Shown: positions 2,563 through 63,242 of the stretch, piece after piece
How positions within the stretch are numbered: position 1 is the first letter of the stretch
Layout: each line of letters begins with the position of its first letter
Origin: a virus
Reading direction: 5' to 3' (one strand)
Virus record (IMG/VR): IMGVR_UViG_3300020473_000020
Coordinates: 64,001 to 128,000 of that record
DNA length: 64,000 bases
Notes under the pieces: model-generated
The model's database searches: none
Told to the model about the DNA's origin: nothing
Seen by the model: the letters and a program-made list of their open reading frames with translations, nothing else
Program-made: the position numbers and the translations under genes

Positions 2563-5500
2563 TTAGCGTGGGTCTTTGAGCTTTACCATGGCTGCCGTGC
2601 CATCGTTCTCAACAACCATGCCCTCAAAGTTGATCTTCGACTTCCACTTCTTAGCATTATTGTCATGGAACTGGTACAAGTATTCCACGGTACGCGCGCC
2701 TTGTGTAAGCCAGCACATGTTCAGCCAAGGTAGCTTGCCGCCCTTGACGTTCATGGCCTTCACTAAGCGCGCAGGTACGATACTCTTAGGCGAACCATCA
2801 CCGTCAATGCTCGTACCACCTCGGTATCTATCATCAAAGATGTCAAAGTCAGAGATAACCATTACGCCGCCAATTACGAGCTGAGTCGGGTCACCCTTAT
2901 ACTTTGTCTTATCAAACTTGGCGGTACCTTCAAACAGTTGAACTAGGTACTCATACGCTGGTGAAATAAACGACCCCGAAGATTTCAAATACTTCGGCAT
3001 GGCTTTATCAAGCTCTTTAACCGTATAGATACCTGAACCATACTCCCGACCGTCAAAGTTGATAGGAACTACGTACTTAACACCCATCTTCTTATCAAGC
3101 TCGAACACTGTTGCAGCTATCGCTTTTGAAATAAGTCTTGCTGACGATGCTAAGGAACCCGAGGCATCAATGATAACCACAAGTGCCTTATCACCCGAGC
3201 CACGTCGAACAGGCATGTCGTCGTCCGCGCCCCAAGCGCCCTTAATTCGACGGCTAAGCTTAGAAGCGTTGTGACCTACTTCTGTATCGATCTTAAAGCC
3301 TTTGACCTTACGCGCCCACTTACGAATAAGCGATACCAAGCCCATAGTTTGTCGATCTGCACGTTGGCCGCCTCCAAACTGGTAGGCATCACTGCCTTTA
3401 CCTGCGTTTTGAAGTTGGTCTCGTACGTTGTCTAGGTCAAGCTCACCATCGTTCTTCTCACGCTCGTTACGGTTGTCCTCCATAGTTTCGCCAGCTTCAC
3501 GAAGCATGTCGTTCATCTTATCGAGGTTATCCTTTAAGCGCTGCTGAGCTTCTTTACGCTTAGCACGCTCTTCGTCTGTATCAGGATCGCGGTCAAACAT
3601 ATCAGACGTATCTGGCTGCTCATCGTCGCCATCAGCATCGCTGCCGTCTGCGTCCGAATCTGCATCAGAGTCTGAGTTAGCGTCGGTGTTGTCAGTGTCG
3701 TTACCATCACCCGAGGTCGAGTCACCGCTCATATCGCTATCGTCATCAGCGTCGTCACCCTCTGGTTGACCACCTTGAGTTGTGTCAGGTCTATCGACGG
3801 CGTCATCAGACTCATCATTTGAGCCGATAGTACTGCTATTCATGTCGTTCGCCAGCGAGTCTAAGTAGTCATCCCAGTCAGATTCAGAGTCTTGCTCTTC
3901 TGAGTCGGCATCACCGCCACCGCTTTGCTGGTCGTCGCTGTCTGCGTCGGCATCGTCCCCTGATTGGTCACTTCCACCGCCACTCTGGTTTGAGTCTGCA
4001 TCAGGTGAATCACCATCGCTATCAGCTGCATCGTCTTGGTTGCTTGTTGCATCCGAGTCAGTACCTGACTGGTCTTGGTCGCCATCGGTATTATCACCAG
4101 CCGCATCATTACCATCTTGGTCGTTATCGACATCGTCACCCGTTGTGCTGTCCCCGTCTTGGTCGTCACTAGGGTCTAAATCGTCGTCGGTACCATCACC
4201 CGCTGTGCCGTCACCACTTTGGTCGGCCGAAGCGTCTTGGTCGTCTTCGTCGTCAGGGTCTTCGTCGTTAGCATCACCGCCACCTGCCGCATCATTATCG
4301 TCATCTTCGTCGTCGGTACCATCATCTTGAGAGGCACCACCGCCAGCTGAGCCATCATCTTGAGGTGGCATATCAGGCTCATTGTTGACTTCAATATCTG
4401 GTTGCGGCTCAGGGTCTTCATCTGACCCATTATCTTGCTGCTGATTAGGGTCGACTTGAACCTCATCGCGTACATCAAGATAAACAGGGCGAAGGTCTTT
4501 CGCGCGCTTAACTTCTAGCTCGTCTTCTTTGATCAGGTTATCAGCTGTAGTCGCAAGTAAGACCTCATCGAAGACATTATCATTGAGGCGTACAGGTGCA
4601 TTTGGTGAACCACCGACATTCGCCAATGCGGTTGCTTTAGCGATTTCTTCGTCATTTAAAACGCCACTGTCCTTATTACCTTGAACAGCGCTCATGATCT
4701 TACCCGATAACGTGCCATTCAAGCGTGTTACTGGGTACGTTAGTAACTGCTGAGCACCTTGCTCGTCATTTGGCAGCACACCGATTACGACTTGGTAGAT
4801 GCCAGTTACTTTATCGAGAACCACATCGCCACGTTCCATTTCTGGCGTGTAAATTTCTGGCTCTTTTTGTGTATCTTCTGGGGCTGCTTGGTCACCTGCG
4901 TCACCTGCGTCGTTGTCTTTTTCAACCTCTGTCACAGTCACATCAGGCTTACGTGCATCGCCGTAAGTTGGCTTCTTCTTAACTAGCTCGTCGTCAGTTA
5001 GTGTTGCGCTAAACGCACGACGTACCATTAATTCTAAATCCCAGAAAGAGGGGAGTGGTAGTGTACCGTCTGCGAAGAAGGTATATTCCTCTGGCATGGT
5101 TTCGAGCCTTCCGATATTAACATCATCAGCTCGGTTAACAACAAAGATAACTGGGAACCAAACGTCATAAGACATTTTGTCTTGTGCTGAGCTAAGCTCG
5201 TCAAGTAGTGCCTCGCGGTAGTCAGGCGAATTTCCGCTATCTTTAAGGCGGTTCTGAACGTCGCTTACTTTAGCTGCGTCAAGATTGCCCTTGCCGAATA
5301 CAATTTGGTCACCAATATACCAACGGCCACATGTAATACGGTTAAACGTTGCACCCGTACTAGTATTGCCTCGGGCATCCATTGTACGGAACTCAGGGAC
5401 TGTATAACCGCCATTGGTCGCAGGCATATCGAACATCGCCGACATAAAGCGGTTATTCATTAGCTCTTCAATCGGTACCGTGTTACTCATCACGCGTTGA

Positions 5501-53972: not shown

Positions 53973-54005
53973 TTGCGGCGCAGTGCTTTATAGAGTATTG
54001 TACAA
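53973..54005 (+). promoter_or_regulatory. Sigma70-like promoter whose -10 overlaps a TTGTACAA palindrome
   Basis: TTGCGG-17 bp-TATTGT(ACAA). Confidence 0.6.
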
Positions 54006-54047
54006 AAGAATGTTTTTAGATAAACGTAAACTTGGAAGAGGTTACCT

Positions 54048-54560
54048 ATGGTTAAAAATGCTGTAGCACTACCGTATAATTTGTTCTTCGTTGGCACGTC
54101 AGCTGACCCTCAAGAAGGGGAGCTAACGGAGTTCGCTATGTTGTTTCCCAACAACAAGCTACTATTCTTTCCATGGGAAGATTGCTTCGCATGGGACAAG
54201 ATGAAAAAGCGCTTTAGAAAAGAGGGCTTACACATCTTCCGTGATGTAGACGGTGCAGAAGAACACTTGACAATAGAAGTTTTTGAGTCAAAATGGCTGC
54301 GCGCCAACGAGCACGAGCTTAAACTAGACCCGCTCATTAACCGTGGCTTAGACGGTTGGTATGATGCTGAGGGGTACTGCTTCGTACGTGACGCAGATGA
54401 GGCACAGACGTCCAGAATCAAGTCTAAGACAGCTTCCGAGAAGCTTACCGACTCTGAAAATGACATGGCTCTTGTTGAAGGCTATCAAAGTCGTCGCCAA
54501 GAGAAGCGTCTGGCAGCTATTAGCCAACGAGCGCCACGAAGACGGCGAAGAAAAAACTGA
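54048..54560 (+). CDS. Hypothetical protein
   Basis: GAGG RBS; 170 aa. Confidence 0.7.
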   Translation: MVKNAVALPYNLFFVGTSADPQEGELTEFAMLFPNNKLLFFPWEDCFAWDKMKKRFRKEGLHIFRDVDGAEEHLTIEVFESKWLRANEHELKLDPLINRGLDGWYDAEGYCFVRDADEAQTSRIKSKTASEKLTDSENDMALVEGYQSRRQEKRLAAISQRAPRRRRRKN

Positions 54561-54614
54561 CACTGCTCACGAGGCAGTGTTTTCATTTAATCGAGACTTA
54601 TGAGTTAGAAAAAC

Positions 54615-55628
54615 ATGAAAAATATCTTGGATGCGAATGCTAAAAAAGCAACGTTGTTTCATATCCGCACAGCTAAGGACATTGATTGGTCGCAGTTGAA
54701 CGCCATGGCTTATAACCCTGAGCAGGCGCTCGATGTGAATAATAAACGCATCGGTTTTGTGCACCCGCTAGAAACCTTAGAAATTGCACCAGAAGGTGAA
54801 ATTTTCGAACAATACGAAGGCGGTCTGATCGGTGCTCTCCGCACGGACAAGTCTGTCGTAACTTCTACCGCAATTAAGCAAGCAGCAGCCGTTCAAATCA
54901 AACAGCGACTTGAGGAACTACCAGAAGACGCACGCTTGAGCAAAGAAGAACGCGAGTCTATTACAATCGCTGTACGTCAAAAGCTGCTTAAAGATTCTAC
55001 TGAGGTTTCTAGCTACGTCCCATTCATTATCGACGAGAAGAACTCAAGACTTATCATTTTCAGCACGACGTCTGATATTTTAGAAGCGGTAAAGGTACGC
55101 CTTAATAATATGTTTGCTGGTGACCTTGAATTGATTGACTACTCATCATTCGCAGTCAAAGCTGAGATCAACAATATAGCTGCAAAATTCCTTTCTAAGC
55201 TTCAAACATACCATACGGCTCATGCTGCCGATGCACATGATATGGTTTTCGAGGGCTGTGATGGCCTTAGCTTCGGCACAGGTGTGAAGCTATCATCATT
55301 CGACGATACGAGTGGTAACGATGGCGGGTTCCCGTCGATTGATGTCACCGACGAGCGCCTTTTACAGCTAATTGAAAGTGCTACGGGCATTGAGAAAATT
55401 GGACTGTTTCTTGTCCACTCGACAAGTGATATTGACTTCACACTTAACTCTAAGTTGCAGTTCGATAAGCTTGGGTTAGACAGTGTTCTGATTCATGGGT
55501 TGCAGGAAGATGACCTGCAAGACCCAACAGGTGAGATCCGCGCGACTGCTCAAATTCTAGCCGACTGTGTAGACATTATGCAGAAAAACGTAACGAATTG
55601 GCTTGGAATGTCTGAGCACATCGGATAG
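54615..55628 (+). CDS. rdgC: RdgC-like recombination-associated protein
   Basis: RIGFVHPL, LRTDKSVVTSTAIK, LSKEERESI...VRQKLL, IIDEKNSRLII, FTLNSKLQF; about 337 aa. Confidence 0.65.
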   Translation: MKNILDANAKKATLFHIRTAKDIDWSQLNAMAYNPEQALDVNNKRIGFVHPLETLEIAPEGEIFEQYEGGLIGALRTDKSVVTSTAIKQAAAVQIKQRLEELPEDARLSKEERESITIAVRQKLLKDSTEVSSYVPFIIDEKNSRLIIFSTTSDILEAVKVRLNNMFAGDLELIDYSSFAVKAEINNIAAKFLSKLQTYHTAHAADAHDMVFEGCDGLSFGTGVKLSSFDDTSGNDGGFPSIDVTDERLLQLIESATGIEKIGLFLVHSTSDIDFTLNSKLQFDKLGLDSVLIHGLQEDDLQDPTGEIRATAQILADCVDIMQKNVTNWLGMSEHIG

Positions 55629-55768
55629 AATCATTACGACTTTGAAGCCTAAACCACTACAACATAGTGGTTTAGGCTTAGAACGAATTAAGATGTTATG
55701 CAATCATAATTAAACGTAGTATCTGGTTAAGGTTTATTGCATTGATTACTTAACCAGTTGATAACAAG

Positions 55769-56455
55769 ATGCTTACTATAAGCAGAGGTCGGTTTGGTCT
55801 ATGGCCAAACATAAAGCAAGAGCGCCGAAAATTGAATAATAAAGACAACTCCACTGATAAAAACGCATCCCCCAGCGTCCGAACCCAAGCAACCACACCA
55901 CTTTTCCAAGGTATAGCTGCCTGCGACATTTTTCAACAATCGTTAGAAAGTGGGAAGCTAGTTAAAGTCGTAGAAGGTACCCCCGTAGATGAACGTGTGC
56001 TTGAGTTGCACGACGACTTGAATAAAGCGTTTCAATTAAATGCAATCCAAGCAGACCAGCTCGTTACGACTGAACGTGAGCTAACCGAACGCAATTTAGA
56101 AGTTGCTGAATTACAACAAGAACTGGCTGCGGCCAAAAAGCAACTAGGTATTAGCCCAACGACTAAAGTGGTAGATGGTACCCAAGCGCACAACCCAGAC
56201 TTAATTAAGCGCCAGCGTGAGGTTATCGACGTAATAAACGGACTGGTTCAGGACAGTAATAGAGACTTCGTAGAAATCCATGAGATAGTCGAACCATTAA
56301 AGAACATGCTTGAAGATGGCCATTCAGTGATCCTTAGCAGTGGTACTAAACTGGGTGACGACATTGCACGTATCATCACGATGATTGAAGATTATTTCCA
56401 CACATTCAATCTAAGACATATCGAAGTCAGGGGTAAGCTCTCGCCGAGTCAATAA
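55769..56455 (+). CDS. Hypothetical coiled-coil protein
   Basis: 228-aa ORF with a central heptad region. Confidence 0.6.
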   Translation: MLTISRGRFGLWPNIKQERRKLNNKDNSTDKNASPSVRTQATTPLFQGIAACDIFQQSLESGKLVKVVEGTPVDERVLELHDDLNKAFQLNAIQADQLVTTERELTERNLEVAELQQELAAAKKQLGISPTTKVVDGTQAHNPDLIKRQREVIDVINGLVQDSNRDFVEIHEIVEPLKNMLEDGHSVILSSGTKLGDDIARIITMIEDYFHTFNLRHIEVRGKLSPSQ

Positions 56456-56502
56456 TAAGAACGCACTGCACATCCCGACCGTATAAACATTCTTAATAAC
56501 AT

Positions 56503-56529
56503 AAAAATGCCGCTATAAGCGGCATTTTT
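56503..56529. terminator. Bidirectional terminator closing the peptide cassette
   Basis: AAAAATGCCGCT-ATA-AGCGGCATTTTT. Confidence 0.8.
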
Positions 56530-56581
56530 GTTACACACAATCTCAAATAAAACAGACCTATTATGGTCGTGGTTCGGGAAC

Positions 56582-56710
56582 CTATTTCACTGGGCGCTGG
56601 AAAGGTGACATGTCAGGCTCTCGCTCGATCTTCGGGTCACCACCTTGGTTACCGCCGCCAGCTACACCACCAGTCACTTTGGCTAAATCACTCTTCGATA
56701 GTTCTTTCAT
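56582..56710 (-). CDS. Double-glycine-leader peptide precursor, 42 aa (not in the ORF track)
   Basis: Manual translation MKELSKSDLAKVTGG/VAGGGNQGGDPKIEREPDMSPFQRPVK; AGAGGA RBS 9 nt upstream; leader matches ELSxxxLxxVxGG. Confidence 0.8.
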   Translation of the reverse strand: MKELSKSDLAKVTGGVAGGGNQGGDPKIEREPDMSPFQRPVK

Positions 56711-56738
56711 CGTGTGTCATCCTCTAAAATTAGGCTAA

Positions 56739-57335
56739 TCACCCATTGTTAAACGGGTCTACTTTTAAACGCCTACCTACAAGACCATCTAGTGTCATTG
56801 TCAGTAGCGCAAAAGTTAAAGCAATAATTAGGCCAAGCTTAAAAGATGGGTACGTGTTGTATATAAACATTGGTTTCTCAGCAAGTATGCCTGAGTGGCG
56901 TACTACGTATTCGGCAACTAGCGTGAGATTCGCTGCTATAGAAAACCCAAATATTAAACGGATAAAATACTCTTGGCGGGCATAACCGAGGTCATTAAAA
57001 GCACGGTATATATAGCTAGTCGTGTCGTGAACACAAAGAAAGTTTGATAGCTTATGGCCAACACGTAGGCGGTATTTTAGAAGCAGTATTGCAGTCAAAT
57101 CTGATAAAGAGTAGCAAATTTGATGAACTATTAGTGAATTTGGCAAGTATGGTTGAAATACAAACAGGTCAACCATGGATAGTGTGAACAGGATTCCCAC
57201 TATCCATATACGCAATGCGTCCCTGATGTTTAAGCCCACTACAATAACCATCGCCAAAAAGTAAGCCGTTACGATGTAGGTCGAAGGCTTACTGTAGTCC
57301 AGATTATTAAAAGTGTTAACGAGTAAGTCATACAT
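56739..57335 (-). CDS. Integral membrane protein (about 5 TM helices)
   Basis: Five hydrophobic segments; start MYDLL overlaps the XRE stop (ATGTATGA). Confidence 0.75.
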   Translation of the reverse strand: MYDLLVNTFNNLDYSKPSTYIVTAYFLAMVIVVGLNIRDALRIWIVGILFTLSMVDLFVFQPYLPNSLIVHQICYSLSDLTAILLLKYRLRVGHKLSNFLCVHDTTSYIYRAFNDLGYARQEYFIRLIFGFSIAANLTLVAEYVVRHSGILAEKPMFIYNTYPSFKLGLIIALTFALLTMTLDGLVGRRLKVDPFNNG

Positions 57336-57669
57336 TATTCTTGTGTCCCTCATCCTTTAGTGCTTGTAGTACTACGTCCTTGTCTGCCAGTGAGAGCTGA
57401 CTAAATAGCTTAACAAAGAAGAGTACAGTGTGTTTTGCGAAACTAACACCGCCACCCTTTTTCCTTTGCGCTTCTAGCAGCATTTCATACTGCGAAACAT
57501 TTGGCTCACTGGTAGACTCTTCGTCTTCCCAGTTCCTAACAGTCGGCGCAGTTACGTCAACGAGTGCGCCAAAGTTCGTTAAATTCATTCCCAAGTTTTT
57601 GCGCATAGCTGCAACGTTTCTTGAGACTTGTCGAGTGCGTGTCGTCGGCACTCGCTTCGCGGCCACCAT
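57328..57669 (-). CDS. XRE-family helix-turn-helix transcription regulator
   Basis: VAAMRKNLGMNLTNFGALVDVTAPTVRNWE....EP; GAGGA RBS. Confidence 0.85.
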   Translation of the reverse strand: MVAAKRVPTTRTRQVSRNVAAMRKNLGMNLTNFGALVDVTAPTVRNWEDEESTSEPNVSQYEMLLEAQRKKGGGVSFAKHTVLFFVKLFSQLSLADKDVVLQALKDEGHKNNV

Positions 57670-57939
57670 AAGCGGTTCCTCAGCGGTAAAACTTTTTTAT
57701 TAATCGGTATTTTTTAAATTTTTTTAAAATCCCCTGTGCTACAGTCGTTTGCATCAAAGGAATCACCGCATTTTAATGAAGAAGTTCGAGTGGTCAAACG
57801 AAAAGCGTAGGAATTTATAAAAATCAGCCTTTTACATTAGTAATTGGGCTTGTTGCGCCTGTTTTTTAAGCGACGCTACTGGCGGCGCACGTTAGAACAA
57901 TTGTTTATTTAAGGCTCAGTAGTTAACTGGCCTTGTCAC

Positions 57940-58344
57940 ATGGAAAGACCGATGGAAAGCACGATCGAAAAATATAAAACGACCCATGACTCAGATTCAC
58001 AGCATTGTGATTGCTCGGAGAACGTTGTGGGTTTTAGCAGGGGTGAATGCGCGAGTGAGATTCAGGCTCTACAAAGAACGGTAGATGCCTATAAAGATTT
58101 AGCGCAAAGACAGGGGAGTGTTATTGAACTACTCAATGAGCTTCTTGTCGAAGCAAATACCGTTATAATTGAGGCGCAGGCTGCGGTTAAGCCTGTGGCC
58201 AGTCATATAACAGATGGTAACTCTTTAATTGTAAGTCCTACTAACACCATGGGAGCGGGGCTAGCAAGCCTTATCGAAACAGTCGAGCAGTATGAAAAAG
58301 AGTACCGCCGAGGTCTTTCAGCGGTTCAGGGTAAACTTGCTTAA
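57940..58344 (+). CDS. Hypothetical coiled-coil protein, divergent from the XRE gene
   Basis: 134-aa ORF. Confidence 0.55.
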   Translation: MERPMESTIEKYKTTHDSDSQHCDCSENVVGFSRGECASEIQALQRTVDAYKDLAQRQGSVIELLNELLVEANTVIIEAQAAVKPVASHITDGNSLIVSPTNTMGAGLASLIETVEQYEKEYRRGLSAVQGKLA

Positions 58345-58727
58345 TGTACTAGCCCCACCAGTTACCATACGCACACATACCCAATAAAGCTGAACGGGTA
58401 ACTCCCCCATCCGTTCAGCGTTACTAAAGTTGCTATAACAGCAGAACCCCCTAACTCTTCTGATGGTCACCTGAGCCATACCTAGTATAAGCACCCTGCT
58501 TGTCATGCTGGTTCTTAATCTGTTGTACAACCGTGTTATTTCAGCCCCTGATAAAGCACTAAATGCAAACCTGCGCTATACGTTAATCATCCCTCAATCG
58601 CCTTGTGCTTTCGGAAAAAAGAATTTGAGAGCGCTAAAATCCATTATTAAATTGTAGCAATGACCTTTAATTTATGGGTCTACATGCCACTTTGCAGTTT
58701 TTGTTTTGGTATTTTTGGATCACATTG

Positions 58728-58754
58728 AGTTTCTTTATTAGTAATAAAGAAACT
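58728..58754. promoter_or_regulatory. Perfect 13-bp-arm inverted repeat (candidate operator)
   Basis: AGTTTCTTTATTA-G-TAATAAAGAAACT. Confidence 0.5.
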
Positions 58755-58906
58755 TTTAATGATCCTATATGTATCTATTATCGGTGGCGCGAGATTTTCG
58801 ATGACCGAGCATCTTAATGGTGCAGAGTTCGGTTATTGTTGTACAACGATCATTAATGTGGTGACTGCTTGCTAAGAACTTTTTCGTGCTTTGTGGCTCA
58901 AAACCC

Positions 58907-58939
58907 TTGCAGTGCAGGTATTTATGGCATATTGTACAA
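58907..58939 (+). promoter_or_regulatory. Sigma70-like promoter whose -10 overlaps TTGTACAA
   Basis: TTGCAG-17 bp-TATTGT(ACAA). Confidence 0.6.
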
Positions 58940-58967
58940 GGGAACTTAATTACAGGAGTATTACGAC

Positions 58968-61145
58968 ATGGCCGAACTTGAACTAAACAGTGGCATGTTA
59001 GACGGTGAAATGGGTAACGCCATTAAGAAGCTAATCACATCAGCAATGGTTGACGATTACGATGGGTGTATCAAAGAACAAAACTCAGCTATCGCAATTC
59101 GTGGCCACATGATCAGTGACTTCACTAATGATGATGCCCCAATGGGATTCCCTACCTTTGATGACGTAGGGAACTTGAACTTATTGCAGTACCTAGATAA
59201 ACACAAGATCATCAGCTTTGACGACCAAGTTGCTTTAGCGCTTGAGGTTCTGACTGATAAGGGCGGTAGGTTAAACTCGGCAGCACGTAAGCGTATTGCT
59301 AAGGAATGGTCGGGTAAATATGATGGTCACTCCCGCGAGCTTGAATTGGTATTAACGCAAGTACTACTTCACCCTAATGCGCGACTAGCTATTGTGGGCG
59401 GGATCCAAGATCAGAAGAACTGGCGAAGAGACCCTGTCGTAAAAATGCTTAGAGCTGGGCATAGTTGGTTAGGTTTAGATAGCAATATCGAGACTGTTAA
59501 GGGCTTCATAGAAAGCTATAAAACGGATGAACGCTACTGGCCGCTTGAGCTTTGGGAGATTGCGGCCGTTGATGAATACGGTAGATCTGACAGCTTCGCA
59601 GCAAGTATAACTAATGCTTGTGAGGGGTATCTAAATACTTTGCTTGTAAAGGCTCGCATTTTTAGCGACCTTACTGCAACACAGAAAAAAGGTCTGATCC
59701 TCGCACTTTACGCGATTAGTTCACTTCTATCGACACGAACTGTTATTGCCCCGTTCGACGCTGCAATCCCTAAGCTAGATAGCTACATTAATTTTGGCCG
59801 CTTGCGTCACCATGGGTTATGCGACGCACAAGGAAAGGCTTCACCGATTTATGAAATTGCGAAAGGCGTAGCCTTGAACTTGGGGGAGTCCGTCGGCAGT
59901 AGTAAGGGTGAAATAATTTATGCAGGTATCAAGTCGATCATTGAAACTGTTGGTTATGATATAAGCAAACTTGACGATTTGAAGGGGTCGATGCGTGCCT
60001 ATTACGCTAGATTACTCACGGATCGCGTGGTTAAACTTGTGATGGAGATCGAGGACATCATAGAGATTCTAGAGTCTCCCGACTGCCATTATGTCTTTTC
60101 CGACGAAGGGAAAACGTTCTTAAATGACCTCAGAGAAGACTTATTTACGTGGCTTAAATACTTACGGTCTGATGACATTAAAGAAGGTAATGACATCAGC
60201 AAGCTAAGCGTCGATGAGGCTGCGACTTACGATTACTGGGTCGGAAAATTCCGAGGTATTCTTGCGGATAACCCGTATACAGAAACGTTTGCCGACCATC
60301 TTGCTTCTAGGAACCTCAACATTGAGAAGCTACAGCGTCAGGCACAAGAGGCCATAGTTGAAATGGACACTGAAACTCTTATGTCAGTAACTAAGCAACT
60401 AAACGAAGCTAAGACGGCCGCGCAGAGTATATTAATAGAGTTGTACAATCCTTTACGGCTTACTGAGGCAATGAAAGACGGCGCGCCAAAGAAAGAAGCC
60501 AGTCCCAAAAAAGGCAATGATGGCCATGACCAGCTACTGGATGACTTAGAGCATACGATAGACACTCTTGAGGGTAAGCTTGCTGATGAGACAGAGAGCC
60601 GTAGTGCTTTAGGGAAAGAATTGGCCGAGGCAAAGCGTAATATAAAAGCGATGGAAAAGGCGTTGGCCGATGCCAGCGAAGATAGCAGCGATGCTTTCGT
60701 AGCACTACTTCGAGGCAGTACACCGCATGCGGTTGTCTCGTCATTCAAGGCACTCGCGGGTAATCACGTAGTCGTTTTAGATTCAGCTTTGGAATCTGCT
60801 AGTAAAAGTACGTTCAAAAACACAGCAAAGCTAATGGAAGCGCTGTCTATACTTTCTGATGACTATTACAACCAGATCGTAGTCGAAGGTAAGCCCGATT
60901 CTGTTGCGAAGAATGTACTCGGTTTTGCTTACCGTGCGGGTGAGTCCGACACGACTATCGCAGTTCCTAAGCTACGTGCACAGCGTGAGTTCAAGTATGA
61001 AGGCGAAAATTACCTGTTCGTTCAGCACCTGACGCTAGGTACAAAGCGTGGTAACCAAACGTCGATTCAAGTCCATTTCAAGATCATTGACAAGAAGCTT
61101 GTAATTGCGCGTGTTGGAACCCACTTAGAAGTATCGAGCAGCTAG
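58968..61145 (+). CDS. Large hypothetical protein; coiled coil plus possible RelE/ParE-like C-terminal domain
   Basis: AGGAG RBS; C-terminus HLTLG...IQVHFKIIDKKLVIARVGTHL. Confidence 0.7.
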   Translation: MAELELNSGMLDGEMGNAIKKLITSAMVDDYDGCIKEQNSAIAIRGHMISDFTNDDAPMGFPTFDDVGNLNLLQYLDKHKIISFDDQVALALEVLTDKGGRLNSAARKRIAKEWSGKYDGHSRELELVLTQVLLHPNARLAIVGGIQDQKNWRRDPVVKMLRAGHSWLGLDSNIETVKGFIESYKTDERYWPLELWEIAAVDEYGRSDSFAASITNACEGYLNTLLVKARIFSDLTATQKKGLILALYAISSLLSTRTVIAPFDAAIPKLDSYINFGRLRHHGLCDAQGKASPIYEIAKGVALNLGESVGSSKGEIIYAGIKSIIETVGYDISKLDDLKGSMRAYYARLLTDRVVKLVMEIEDIIEILESPDCHYVFSDEGKTFLNDLREDLFTWLKYLRSDDIKEGNDISKLSVDEAATYDYWVGKFRGILADNPYTETFADHLASRNLNIEKLQRQAQEAIVEMDTETLMSVTKQLNEAKTAAQSILIELYNPLRLTEAMKDGAPKKEASPKKGNDGHDQLLDDLEHTIDTLEGKLADETESRSALGKELAEAKRNIKAMEKALADASEDSSDAFVALLRGSTPHAVVSSFKALAGNHVVVLDSALESASKSTFKNTAKLMEALSILSDDYYNQIVVEGKPDSVAKNVLGFAYRAGESDTTIAVPKLRAQREFKYEGENYLFVQHLTLGTKRGNQTSIQVHFKIIDKKLVIARVGTHLEVSSS

Positions 61146-61310
61146 TATTTCCCCGCTATTAATAACAATACGTCGACCCCCACTGGTCGGCGTATTCACC
61201 TACCTTCAAACCTTACAATACGCTTGCAATAGTTGCCCTAAATCCCTAGAATAGCAGTCGATTTGAGACAAGACGTGTTAATTCGTCTGTAGATAAATTA
61301 GGAACTTAGT

Positions 61311-61511
61311 ATGGCGAAAACGCAAGGCACCAGCCTGCTTCATATTAACACCCTACGGTCATGGTCGACATCAGTATCAATTGAGGTCAACGGCGCGACT
61401 AAGTGGGTACATAAAAGACCAAAGGGACTAACCAGTTTTAGGGAACGTCTTAGCATTGCATTTAAGGTATTCAAAGGGGAAGCTGATGCTGTCGTATGGG
61501 AACAACAATAA
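61311..61511 (+). CDS. Hypothetical protein
   Basis: AGGA RBS; downstream of TTGCAA-17-TAGAAT at 61224-61252. Confidence 0.6.
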   Translation: MAKTQGTSLLHINTLRSWSTSVSIEVNGATKWVHKRPKGLTSFRERLSIAFKVFKGEADAVVWEQQ

Positions 61512-61679
61512 CAATAACAATAACTATAATAACATAGTCGATGGTGTTGCTCGTATCTTCCTCGATAATCGCGATGACGACGACGTAAAAATCATTACAA
61601 AAATAAAAACAAAATTTCCTATGCTTTCGCATGAAGAAAGGCTAAAGGTTATGCGCCAAGTGGCTGAGAGGTTTTCGTA

Positions 61680-62135
61680 ATGGCAAAGAATTTCTCAAAC
61701 TTTAGGCTAGTAAGGACGCAGGATTACCCTCTAGGTGCGCAAGCCCTTATAGACATAACCAACCACGGCCAAACTCAGACAATTTTAATCAGGCAAGATA
61801 CTTTAACGCTAAACTGGCACTATCTTTCTGGAAGTTCCAAAGAACTCCACCCATCGGTACTTAATCAGCTTGAAATCCCCGACGACTTAACGAAGCCATT
61901 CTGGTATGATGCGCACGACGCTGACCTAGCTGGGTTCGCTAAATGGGTCTCAGACGCGACTGCATCTTTGGCACGTCAACTAGAGGCCAATGAAGAGAAT
62001 CTTGCTGGGTTACGCCGTATCGGGTCTGATGACCTAAATAAGCGCATTCTTGAGTTAGTAGCAGAAAGAGAACTACTGAGAGGTGCAGTACGTGAATTAA
62101 TGGGAGCACTGTCGCAGGTAAGCTACCCACTATAG
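61680..62135 (+). CDS. Hypothetical protein
   Basis: GAGG RBS; TAATG coupling to the upstream ORF. Confidence 0.6.
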   Translation: MAKNFSNFRLVRTQDYPLGAQALIDITNHGQTQTILIRQDTLTLNWHYLSGSSKELHPSVLNQLEIPDDLTKPFWYDAHDADLAGFAKWVSDATASLARQLEANEENLAGLRRIGSDDLNKRILELVAERELLRGAVRELMGALSQVSYPL

Positions 62136-62387: not shown

Positions 62388-63242
62388 ATGAAACCAATAC
62401 TGTGTATCTACCATGATCACTGTACCGATGGGTATGGCGCTGCATGGGTTGTACAACGCAAGTTCGGTGTTGAGAATGTGGAGCTTTACGGTGGAACGTA
62501 CATGCGCCCAGCACCGCCTGTAGAGTTATACAAAGACCGCACTGTCTACCTTGTAGACTTCTCGTATAAACGCGATGTTCTGAAAAAGATTGCCGAGCAA
62601 GCCAAAGAAGTAATTATATTAGACCACCATGCAACGGCCGAAGCTGATATTGCACCATTGATTGCTGATGGAACCGTAACAGGCTGTTTCGCTAAAGAAG
62701 AGTCAGGTGCCCTGCTAACTTGGAATTATCTATTTGCGGGCTTCCCAGCGCCTCGGCTTATTCAGCACCTGTCGGATCGTGACTTGTGGACTTTCAAACT
62801 CCCGAACACAAAGGTAATTGTAGAAGCCGTAATGTCATACGATTATGACTACGACACTTGGACAGACCTAATGCACGAACCGTTATCTAACCTTATAGAG
62901 ATCGGCGAACGGTTATACGCAATGAAGCTTAAAAATGCGAAGGACATCATTGATTCTAATACGCTTCTTGTTGAGTTCGAAGGCTCATTGGTGCCGTGTG
63001 TAAACATGCCTTACCAGTGGGTTTCAGACGGTGCCGAGTTTCTAAAGGATGACTACGATTTCGTCGTATTGTTTACGGTCGAGCGAGAGCATGTGAAGTT
63101 CTCATTAAGGTCAGCCAAAGGTAAAACTGATGTTAGTGAGATAGCATTGAAGTACGGCGGCGGTGGCCATAGAGAGGCCGCTAGCTTTAGCCTAGCTAAA
63201 GACGACTACTTAGTTCGTCGTCTAGTGCTGGGCAGCTATTAG
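62388..63242 (+). CDS. DHH/DHHA1 phosphoesterase (nanoRNase-like)
   Basis: YHDHCTDG, LVDFS, ILDHH, DRDLW, FSLRS, YGGGGHREAASF. Confidence 0.9.
   Translation: MKPILCIYHDHCTDGYGAAWVVQRKFGVENVELYGGTYMRPAPPVELYKDRTVYLVDFSYKRDVLKKIAEQAKEVIILDHHATAEADIAPLIADGTVTGCFAKEESGALLTWNYLFAGFPAPRLIQHLSDRDLWTFKLPNTKVIVEAVMSYDYDYDTWTDLMHEPLSNLIEIGERLYAMKLKNAKDIIDSNTLLVEFEGSLVPCVNMPYQWVSDGAEFLKDDYDFVVLFTVEREHVKFSLRSAKGKTDVSEIALKYGGGGHREAASFSLAKDDYLVRRLVLGSY

Follow-up and report, generated by a model that had tools for sequence, protein, structure and literature searches.

What could a virus gain from a compact set of genes that pairs a DNA-binding regulator with a membrane protein and an export-type peptide? 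Such a cassette lies at 57669-56503 on the minus strand of a 64,000-nucleotide stretch of viral DNA (hereafter the window), which covers bases 64001-128000 of the 138,059-bp IMG/VR virus record IMGVR_UViG_3300020473_000020, with a completeness estimate of 33%. Its three genes encode an XRE-family helix-turn-helix (HTH) regulator, a membrane protein with five predicted helices and a 42-residue peptide precursor. The reading that we favour, at about an even chance, is that the cassette is a split, membrane-anchored regulator sensing a peptide exported by the host, a kinase-less switch native to Pseudoalteromonas. This peptide-responsive switch is preferred because the peptide joins a conserved block to a variable tail, the regulator appears to be coupled to the membrane protein, and exporters of the needed type are available.

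Organization of the cassette

In the direction of transcription, the cassette comprises the XRE gene, the membrane gene, the peptide open reading frame (ORF) and a hairpin terminator, with the following features.

57328-57669, minus strand: XRE-family HTH regulator of 113 residues, with the HTH at about residues 20-50, a conserved extension at the N-terminus and a helical tail at the C-terminus.
56739-57335, minus strand: membrane protein of 198 residues and five predicted membrane helices, from a family without a name; the start codon shares bases with the XRE stop.
56582-56710, minus strand: peptide precursor of 42 residues, with a leader at 56710-56666 (15 residues), a predicted mature part at 56665-56585 (27 residues) and the stop at 56584-56582.
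56725-56720, minus strand: ribosome-binding site AGAGGA, 9 nt ahead of the peptide ATG, read directly.
56503-56529, strand-neutral: intrinsic-terminator hairpin of 12 pairs (5 G-C) with a loop of 3, preceded by an A run and followed by a T run.
57770-57797, minus strand: candidate sigma-70-type promoter upstream of the XRE gene (TTGACC, 16 nt, TAAAAT; 10 of 12 consensus positions).

The XRE stop and the ATG of the membrane gene overlap as ATGTATGA, and the peptide ORF begins 28 nt beyond the membrane gene. Every element that the initial annotation, made from the sequence alone, had listed for a three-gene minus-strand unit was confirmed, from the ORFs and their overlap to the ribosome-binding site and terminator, and its 42-residue ORF at 56710-56582 was found as quoted. 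The XRE start at 57669 is backed by the conserved N-terminus of three homologues (P0010, P0011 and P0014); gene callers give a 92-residue form of the protein (P0009). The longest frame of the membrane ORF begins at 57353, and homologues align from the ATG at 57335 (alignment A1).

The terminator hairpin is common to the cassette and the convergent gene at 55769-56455, and a scan found 7 terminator-like sites in 2.5 kb, compared to 2.5 +/- 1.5 in shuffles. Two variants were observed at its loop. An independent DNA sequencing run (X2) has the loop at 56515-56517 inverted from ATA to TAT with the stem kept, and a second short contig carries a 2-nt insertion and then continues into unlike sequence. 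The sigma-70-like sites of the region are not above chance (4 found against 5.2 in shuffles), which makes the candidate promoter weak evidence. No TTGTACAA motif is found within the cassette or its upstream intergenic region (56503-57940, read directly), and therefore the cassette may be transcribed from a different, host-type promoter.

A small peptide conserved beside the membrane gene

At the start of the predicted mature part of the peptide stands a conserved Gly-rich block that closes with GGDP, and the remainder is a variable tail. Residues 1-15 of the phage precursor match TIGR01847, the curated Gly-Gly leader model for bacteriocin-type signal sequences, with 18.2 bits over a cut-off of 15.7 (E 0.0026), which bears out the leader proposed by the initial annotation. 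Among 5,056 ORF starts in the 138-kb record, the leader regular expression has a single match; shuffled DNA yields 0.6 matches on average, so the pattern alone is not beyond chance. We regard homology to chromosomal peptides as the decisive evidence for the small ORF. A hidden Markov model (HMM) built from 16 chromosomal peptides alone picks out the phage peptide from the 1,941 small ORFs of the record with an E of 1.2e-11 (41.5 bits); the runner-up reaches E=1.1. In addition, the ratio of nonsynonymous to synonymous substitution rates (dN/dS) of the peptide ORF is 0.15-0.35 among four closely related chromosomal loci (L011-L014), which indicates purifying selection. Because of this HMM match and this dN/dS range, the small ORF is best regarded, on sequence evidence, as a real, translated and selected gene. 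Within the L011-L014 peptides, the Gly block is the most constrained part, with a ratio of nonsynonymous to synonymous polymorphism (pN/pS) of 0.10, and the tail is nearly neutral (0.82). Gene callers report the exact peptide on 10 contigs, the largest of 419,624 bp, and a version with I28V on 3 contigs. The peptide block, including its conserved Gly-rich GGDP part, has no model in Pfam, NCBIfam, PHROGs or PADLOC.

A six-frame search of 140 Pseudoalteromonas genomes revealed matches to the membrane family in 33 of them, with up to five per genome; an order-wide sample gave 4 of 401 genomes, three of which were already among the finds of the genus search. Twelve close loci come from 11 of the Pseudoalteromonas genomes (L004-L006 and L008-L016). 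In all 12, one strand carries an XRE gene, a homologue of the membrane gene and between one and three small peptides, and the trio is a conserved unit. Eleven of these loci have the peptides between the XRE gene and the membrane gene, and L008 has them after the membrane gene; the phage order of XRE, membrane and peptide genes recurs in L008 and in the distant locus L032. L005 and L009 each have three tandem peptides for one membrane protein. The leaders of the chromosomal small ORFs end in a hydrophobic residue, any residue, and G-G/A/S, followed by a Gly-rich block of the form V-A/G-G-G-G-x-x-G-G-D-P or G-G-G-G-Q-V-D-P, and their tails are variable, hydrophilic and Pro-containing. The initial annotation had made its reading depend on conservation of the small ORF beside membrane-protein homologues; such conservation, together with the dN/dS range above, is what the close loci display.

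These trio counts refer to other, chromosomal loci than the phage-like subgroup of membrane proteins (P0002-P0007), for which adjacency to an XRE gene rests on shared contig sizes and adjacent accessions. The XRE and membrane homologues of this subgroup occur on contigs of matching sizes, 2601 and 5734, and those of Pseudoalteromonas sp. Of7M-16 bear the consecutive accession numbers MCG7550978.1 and MCG7550979.1. A role of the small ORF as an upstream leader or attenuator of the membrane gene was ruled out: it lies downstream of that gene in the phage, L008 and L032, and its sequence is conserved and selected.

The same parts could constitute a bacteriocin (microcin-like) locus, in which the peptide would be a toxin against competitors, the membrane protein would confer immunity and XRE would regulate, so that the phage arms its host. 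Membrane immunity proteins beside Gly-Gly peptides are a common pattern. The phage leader passes a bacteriocin-type signal model, the three tandem peptides of L005 and L009 have variable tails, the hosts carry peptidase-containing ABC (ATP-binding cassette) transporters (PCATs), and one chromosomal leader weakly matches a 'bacteriocin-like protein' leader model (E 0.21). However, the predicted mature peptides, 20-40 residues long where they could be delimited (16 of 17), all have a negative grand average of hydropathy and hold 1 Cys among all 17; some are very short and acidic, such as that of L004 with ~15 residues. Such hydrophilic, nearly Cys-free peptides argue against a membrane-active bacteriocin or a lanthipeptide, and we consider a bacteriocin locus improbable.

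Probable coupling of the regulator to the membrane protein

The XRE label given by the initial annotation is confirmed by profile comparison. As a single sequence, the protein scores 13.8 bits against Pfam HTH_3 (PF01381), below the cut-off of 23. The profile of the protein and its homologues (A5) matches the solved proteins HigA-2 (E 4.8e-9), P22 C2 (1.6e-6) and CylR2 (2.2e-4), with HipB also among the matches, and an HTH_3-type domain is recognized at this profile level. The protein also matches PHROG 7950, 'transcriptional repressor', with an E of 2.1e-5, and its homologue P0014 is labelled as an XRE-family HTH regulator by its source.

Besides the close loci, 23 distant loci of the membrane family were analysed, of which L029 and L037 overlap and represent one region. 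An XRE gene adjoins the membrane gene in 13 of them by the HMM of A5 and in 2 more by Pfam alone (L022 and L030). Five distant loci have ORFs of 295-302 residues in which an N-terminal HTH_3 domain, above the Pfam cut-off, is followed by a C-terminal membrane-family domain. With these fusions counted in, regulator and membrane protein are linked in 20 of the 23 loci; no XRE or HTH partner was found in L018 (at a contig end), L025 and L035. Comparison by hhalign aligned the C-terminal domain of the fused ORFs to the membrane family with a probability of 92.9% and an E of 3.8e-7, and both share an E-x-L-I-R-H motif. L029 and L034 hold both fused and split forms, next to each other. Just one of the distant loci has a family peptide.

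As for the arrangement of the fusion genes, tandem arrays of two to three, each of ~300 residues, occur in L023, L029/L037 and L038 (genomes G140 and G139). In G140 the arrays appear twice, ~110 kb apart and with identical scores (1003804/1005619 and 1113372/1115187), which suggests a large duplication.

Complex prediction for the membrane family (A2) and the XRE family (A5) gave a score of 0.66 (runs 0.68, 0.56 and 0.66), compared to 0.00 for the best of three controls. At least 45% of contacts recur between runs, and the predicted local distance difference test (pLDDT) score of the partner is at least 74. The pass mark is reached by 58 of 80 solved complexes and by 2 of 110 mismatched pairs, counts that are rough since own alignments were used. 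We know of no comparable complex, so a pass from model memory is unlikely; the score expresses how confident the model is. On the membrane side, the predicted interface consists of the most conserved basic loops 87-94 and 116-124 together with the C-terminal tail 172-197, and on the XRE side of the N-terminal extension 11-25 and the post-HTH helices 58-84. XRE is thus predicted to bind the membrane protein. The initial annotation had pictured this protein as a sensor, immunity or processing partner; what the fusions and the passed prediction support is a partner of the regulator.

These results bear on the bacteriocin reading as well. An HTH fusion, and predicted binding of XRE at the cytoplasmic face, would be unexpected of an immunity protein, and the distant XRE-membrane pairs mostly occur without a family peptide.

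A membrane protein of an unnamed family

In the AlphaFold model of the membrane protein (pLDDT 82.2), five long helices fit membrane spans and are accompanied by short ones. The helix number claimed by the initial annotation stands in this model. By the positive-inside rule, the loops 87-94 and 116-124 and the contact region of the C-terminal tail would face the cytoplasm, and the N-terminus, an L-P-x-S loop and the residues E142 and R146 would lie at the outer face. Six residues of the family are listed as invariant and polar, namely Y75, R89, E142, R146, Y162 and G184, and those at the predicted outer face suggest contact with a ligand.

The protein belongs to no family in Pfam, NCBIfam, PHROGs or PADLOC. 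Structural similarity search of the Protein Data Bank using Foldseek gave no match at E<=0.001; the best VIA-align Z score, 8.8 to designed helical bundles, is under the noise level of the tool for helical proteins, and the ESM Atlas returned only unnamed clusters with borderline scores of 0.91, 0.90 and 0.87. The six close homologues (P0002-P0007) are 50-62% identical to the phage protein, and a profile search of 1.84 billion cluster representatives revealed just 14 matches at E<=0.001. Every named member of the family comes from Pseudoalteromonas. Neither an invariant Cys, His or Ser in the family alignment nor a known catalytic motif or fold (in Pfam, NCBIfam and the fold searches) was found.

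The invariant polar residues could also serve catalysis. In a maturation unit for a peptide that is ribosomally synthesized and then modified post-translationally (RiPP), the membrane protein would be a new intramembrane enzyme or protease that recognizes the Gly-rich block and processes or exports the peptide, and XRE would just regulate. The precursors, single or in up to three tandem copies, consist of a conserved leader and recognition block and a tail that is hypervariable, the usual layout for a RiPP, and no exporter is encoded nearby (138-kb record and flanks read). Against such a unit stand the lack of a catalytic motif and of invariant Cys, His or Ser, the conserved cytoplasmic loops that are predicted to hold XRE, the relatives fused to an HTH, and the distant family members, which mostly come without such peptides. 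It is the least probable of the readings considered here. The initial idea of a peptide-signalling or RiPP system is partly supported, by the conserved trio and the probable coupling; for the RiPP half, the membrane protein itself is the sole enzyme candidate.

Alternatively, regulator and membrane protein could form a toxin-antitoxin or abortive-infection-like pair, in which XRE neutralizes a membrane-damaging protein, the peptide is accessory, and the phage gains addiction, superinfection exclusion or counter-defence. Favourable to this are the gene overlap with the antitoxin-first order, the solved matches of the XRE profile (HigA-2 as the best, HipB too), weak NCBIfam matches to the MqsA and HipB antitoxin HTH models, the predicted binding, the up to five family matches per genome, and neighbours such as AbiD, an integrase, a CI-type repressor and a resolvase. 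However, such a pair leaves the conserved, selected export-type peptide of all 12 close loci unexplained, and an 'antitoxin' HTH covalently fused to its 'toxin' in relatives would be odd. Moreover, the membrane protein and the peptide match no PADLOC model, and the invariant polar residues at the predicted outer face hint at a ligand contact. This pair comes first among the improbable alternatives.

Export and a proposed peptide-responsive switch

The hosts possess the type of exporter that the peptide-responsive switch requires. A C39 peptidase, mostly in ORFs of ~700-750 residues, was found in 102 of the 140 Pseudoalteromonas genomes. It is present in all 33 genomes with the membrane family, compared to 69 of the 107 without it (Fisher p=7.9e-6, not corrected for phylogeny).

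On the favoured reading, the operon would yield a small XRE repressor or activator, a five-helix inner-membrane protein and a 42-residue propeptide. XRE would dock, by its N-terminal extension and C-terminal helices, on the membrane protein at its cytoplasmic loops and its tail, and the pair would be the split form of a membrane-anchored one-component regulator. The propeptide would be cut behind its Gly-Gly leader and exported by a C39-peptidase ABC exporter of the host. The membrane protein would then sense the hydrophilic 27-mer with its outer face, at the site of the invariant Glu/Arg motif that ends helix 4. Sensing would alter whether XRE is held or active, and thereby change transcription, at least of the cassette. 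The phage copy would let infected cells signal to Pseudoalteromonas cells or eavesdrop on them. In this scheme we infer the topology, the export and sensing of the peptide, the direction in which regulation runs and any benefit for the phage, which could be signalling among infected cells, eavesdropping on the host or interference with it. A bolder version holds that this would be the first cell-to-cell peptide communication of Gram-negative bacteria and of a phage infecting them, with export by a host PCAT, a five-helix receptor that holds or releases XRE, neither kinase nor import, and a phage copy that, by means of a private peptide tail, counts infected cells or jams the host. We regard that version as unlikely.

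Several observations weigh against the switch. The C39 peptidase (PF03412) has no match in the 138-kb record, itself ~33% complete, so the initial statement that the window has no PCAT holds for the whole record; likewise, no C39 exporter was seen in the 1.5-8 kb flanks read at the chromosomal loci. None of 10 chromosomal peptides matches TIGR01847, even at E 10, which counts against a uniform PCAT route. These chromosomal leaders, read by eye, fit the positional rule alone, with a hydrophobic residue at each of -4, -7 and -12 and a cut at G-G/A/S; a canonical Gly-Gly leader is thus confined to the phage copy. A 27-mer is large for re-entry through the outer membrane. Sets of three tandem peptides, as in L005 and L009, are commoner in bacteriocin or RiPP loci than among pheromones. 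Of the solved proteins, the one closest to the XRE profile is an antitoxin, HigA-2, which fits a toxin-antitoxin or defence role too, as do the mobile or defence contexts of several loci. The membrane topology is drawn solely from the positive-inside rule. The region upstream of the phage XRE gene (57600-58000) has no operator-like repeat, only A/T-rich low-complexity pairs. Finally, contigs from RNA libraries are compatible with expression of the cassette without proving its transcription.

These RNA-library contigs derive from one sample (runs X16 and X19) and cover 56596-56877, 57363-57530 and both neighbouring genes. The first part comprises the peptide ORF and the 3' end of the membrane gene, and the second belongs to the XRE gene. 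The library could contain DNA, contig depth cannot rank the genes, and the uncovered terminator, most of the membrane gene and the intergenic region are uninformative.

Genomic surroundings in the phage and in Pseudoalteromonas

Proteins of the record recur on contigs of up to 419,624 bp, which indicates a marine jumbo phage, with a full genome of probably ~416-420 kb. The genes of the window include a family-A DNA polymerase, helicases and a ribonucleotide reductase, and the surroundings of the cassette are as follows.

54615-55628, plus strand: RdgC-like recombination-associated protein (Pfam E 4.6e-10; PHROG 724 E 1.7e-17), flanking the region.
62388-63242, plus strand: DHH phosphoesterase (PHROG 4771 E 5.8e-84), flanking the region.
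55769-56455, 57940-58344 and 58968-61145: large neighbours, coiled-coil-like, matching no family in Pfam, NCBIfam or PHROGs.

The cassette is present once in the 138-kb record, and the GC content over 52-62 kb shows no anomaly at it, that is, no signal of recent acquisition. Neither blastn of 54001-62000 nor tblastn of the membrane protein against phage and plasmid collections gave a match. Scans of viral contigs with exact peptide patterns found no other viral contig with the cassette, although pattern scans cannot show absence. A scan of metagenome contigs and a first scan of genome contigs found no relatives by the exact-pattern method, which may have left out near-identical records. The module is mainly a chromosomal and mobile-element one in Pseudoalteromonas, and a phage-specific system, as pictured by the initial annotation, is not supported. 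Because the family is restricted to that genus, the host of the phage is inferred to be Pseudoalteromonas. The cassette stretch or parts of it are present in sequencing runs of 10 studies, one of them perhaps the source of the record. Run X2 carries the stretch with 4 differing letters in 2,401, 3 of which are the inverted terminator loop.

Several of the chromosomal cassettes lie in mobile or defence contexts, marked by AbiD, an integrase, a CI-type repressor or a resolvase. A second HTH_3 gene of 87-131 residues (Pfam E 9e-10 in L011), CI/Cro-like, stands divergent from the cassette XRE gene at ~2620-3100 (plus strand) in L011-L016, and L004 likewise has a CI-type repressor gene running divergently from its XRE gene. 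An AbiD abortive-infection gene adjoins the cassette at L011:344-1267 (plus strand; PADLOC E 8.9e-77). In L012, sequence reading found near the cassette the start of an ORF that looks like a cytosine methyltransferase (3418-3528, plus strand). The neighbours vary among otherwise syntenic loci, as in variable islands. The C2R02 copy, considered as a prophage, has an integrase, a CI-type HTH protein and an S24 peptidase in its context; the 10 ORFs scanned include no structural phage genes, and a prophage is not supported.

The cassettes of L011 and L012 themselves differ part by part (2040-2516 in each). The XRE gene is identical over 210 nt (dS 0), compared to a dS of 0.56 for the peptide and 0.25 for the membrane gene, a mosaic that points to recombination swapping the peptide and membrane part separately from the regulator. 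Both cassettes of Pseudoalteromonas sp. T1lg65 adjoin large ORFs that resemble secreted peptidases (L002:9141-12032 and L006:1-549, both minus strand). Read by eye, one shows an insulinase-type motif, HxxEH, and the other looks M13-like; coincidence is possible.

Comparison with known systems

The XRE HTH and the Gly-Gly leader are known kinds of part. None of the four curated libraries contains the membrane family or the peptide family, their constant association, the fusions of HTH and membrane domain or a case in a phage of a Gram-negative host; PADLOC-DB 2.0 holds no family for the phage XRE protein, membrane protein or peptide and gives generic HTH matches for one chromosomal XRE. Within the openly available main texts of the literature, outside subscription journals and supplementary files, the portions retrieved describe no module of XRE, membrane protein and Gly-Gly peptide in Pseudoalteromonas, other Gram-negatives or phages.

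Peptide signalling is textbook knowledge for Gram-positive bacteria and their phages (arbitrium), and Gram-negative bacteria are thought to use small molecules. The present module is compact, conserved and mobile, occurs in about a tenth to a quarter of the sampled Pseudoalteromonas species, and brings together a peptide of the export type and a regulator linked to a membrane protein family that is new. The module would offer a testable candidate for kinase-less peptide sensing in Gram-negative bacteria, and its presence in an abundant marine jumbo phage makes it a candidate for phage-host or phage-phage communication at sea. Should it turn out to serve competition or addiction, the families of the membrane protein and of the peptide, as well as the HTH::membrane fusions, would still lack annotation in the four libraries.

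The XRE protein resembles the type II antitoxins HigA-2, HipB and MqsA in that HigA-2 is the best solved match of its profile, its gene overlaps the next one, and it is predicted to bind the product of that gene. Unlike in type II toxin-antitoxin systems, this product is a 198-residue, five-helix membrane protein of no known toxin family, and the unit includes an export-type peptide. The fused relatives, in turn, are reminiscent of ToxR and CadC, in which a DNA-binding domain is likewise tied to a membrane sensor domain without a phosphorelay; the phage form would be a split version of this design. ToxR and CadC have a winged-helix OmpR-type domain, one membrane helix and a periplasmic domain, whereas the proteins described here have an XRE HTH, a five-helix bundle and almost no periplasmic mass.

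As in arbitrium and other RRNPP systems, a small phage-borne peptide gene adjoins the gene of an HTH regulator, and communication among infected cells is conceivable. AimR is a cytoplasmic receptor of ~365 residues with a peptide-binding repeat domain, whereas the XRE protein has 113 residues and no match to a repeat domain. The AimR model touches just the HTH of the fused relatives (17-19 bits against a cut-off of 70), and judged by sequence the XRE protein does not appear to be an RRNPP-type cytoplasmic peptide receptor. Arbitrium peptides use Sec export and Opp import, compared to a Gly-Gly leader, a membrane partner and a Gram-negative host for the cassette peptide.

Gly-Gly leaders and export by C39-peptidase ABC transporters are shared by the pheromones ComC and BlpC, class II bacteriocins and microcins. 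The phage peptide resembles such PCAT substrates in that its leader passes TIGR01847 and PCAT genes are common in the host genus. It differs from PCAT substrates in general by the lack of a PCAT in the operon or the record, and by a Gly-rich GGDP block behind the cut that no curated model describes. Sensing of ComC and BlpC relies on histidine kinases, of which the cassette has none. Two articles (PMC7018657 and PMC6363468) concern Gly-Gly-leader peptides and their C39-peptidase ABC transporters.

The nearest precedent by analogy is the pair CylR1/CylR2 with its signal CylLS''. In both systems a small XRE-type HTH protein would act with a small, kinase-free, multi-helix membrane protein on an exported peptide. 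The pair is said to have been described by Haas et al. in 2002 as regulating the cytolysin of Enterococcus faecalis. According to a review, the HTH protein CylR2 and the membrane protein CylR1 of E. faecalis respond to exported CylLS'' without a kinase, and the signal path is there called unresolved (PMC3709268). In that system, the peptide is trimmed by CylB, which is of the PCAT type, and CylR1 is given three predicted helices, compared to five in the membrane protein of the cassette, a comparison by description and not by sequence. The match of CylR2 to the XRE profile reflects generic HTH likeness and is weaker than those of HigA-2 or P22 C2. The cytolysin signal is a subunit of a Gram-positive lanthipeptide toxin, whereas the cassette peptide is Cys-free, hydrophilic and Gram-negative or phage-borne; the XRE, membrane and peptide genes, moreover, stand here in one operon, a further difference from CylR1/CylR2. 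With these differences in view, the cassette could, by analogy, illuminate how CylR1 and CylR2 work.

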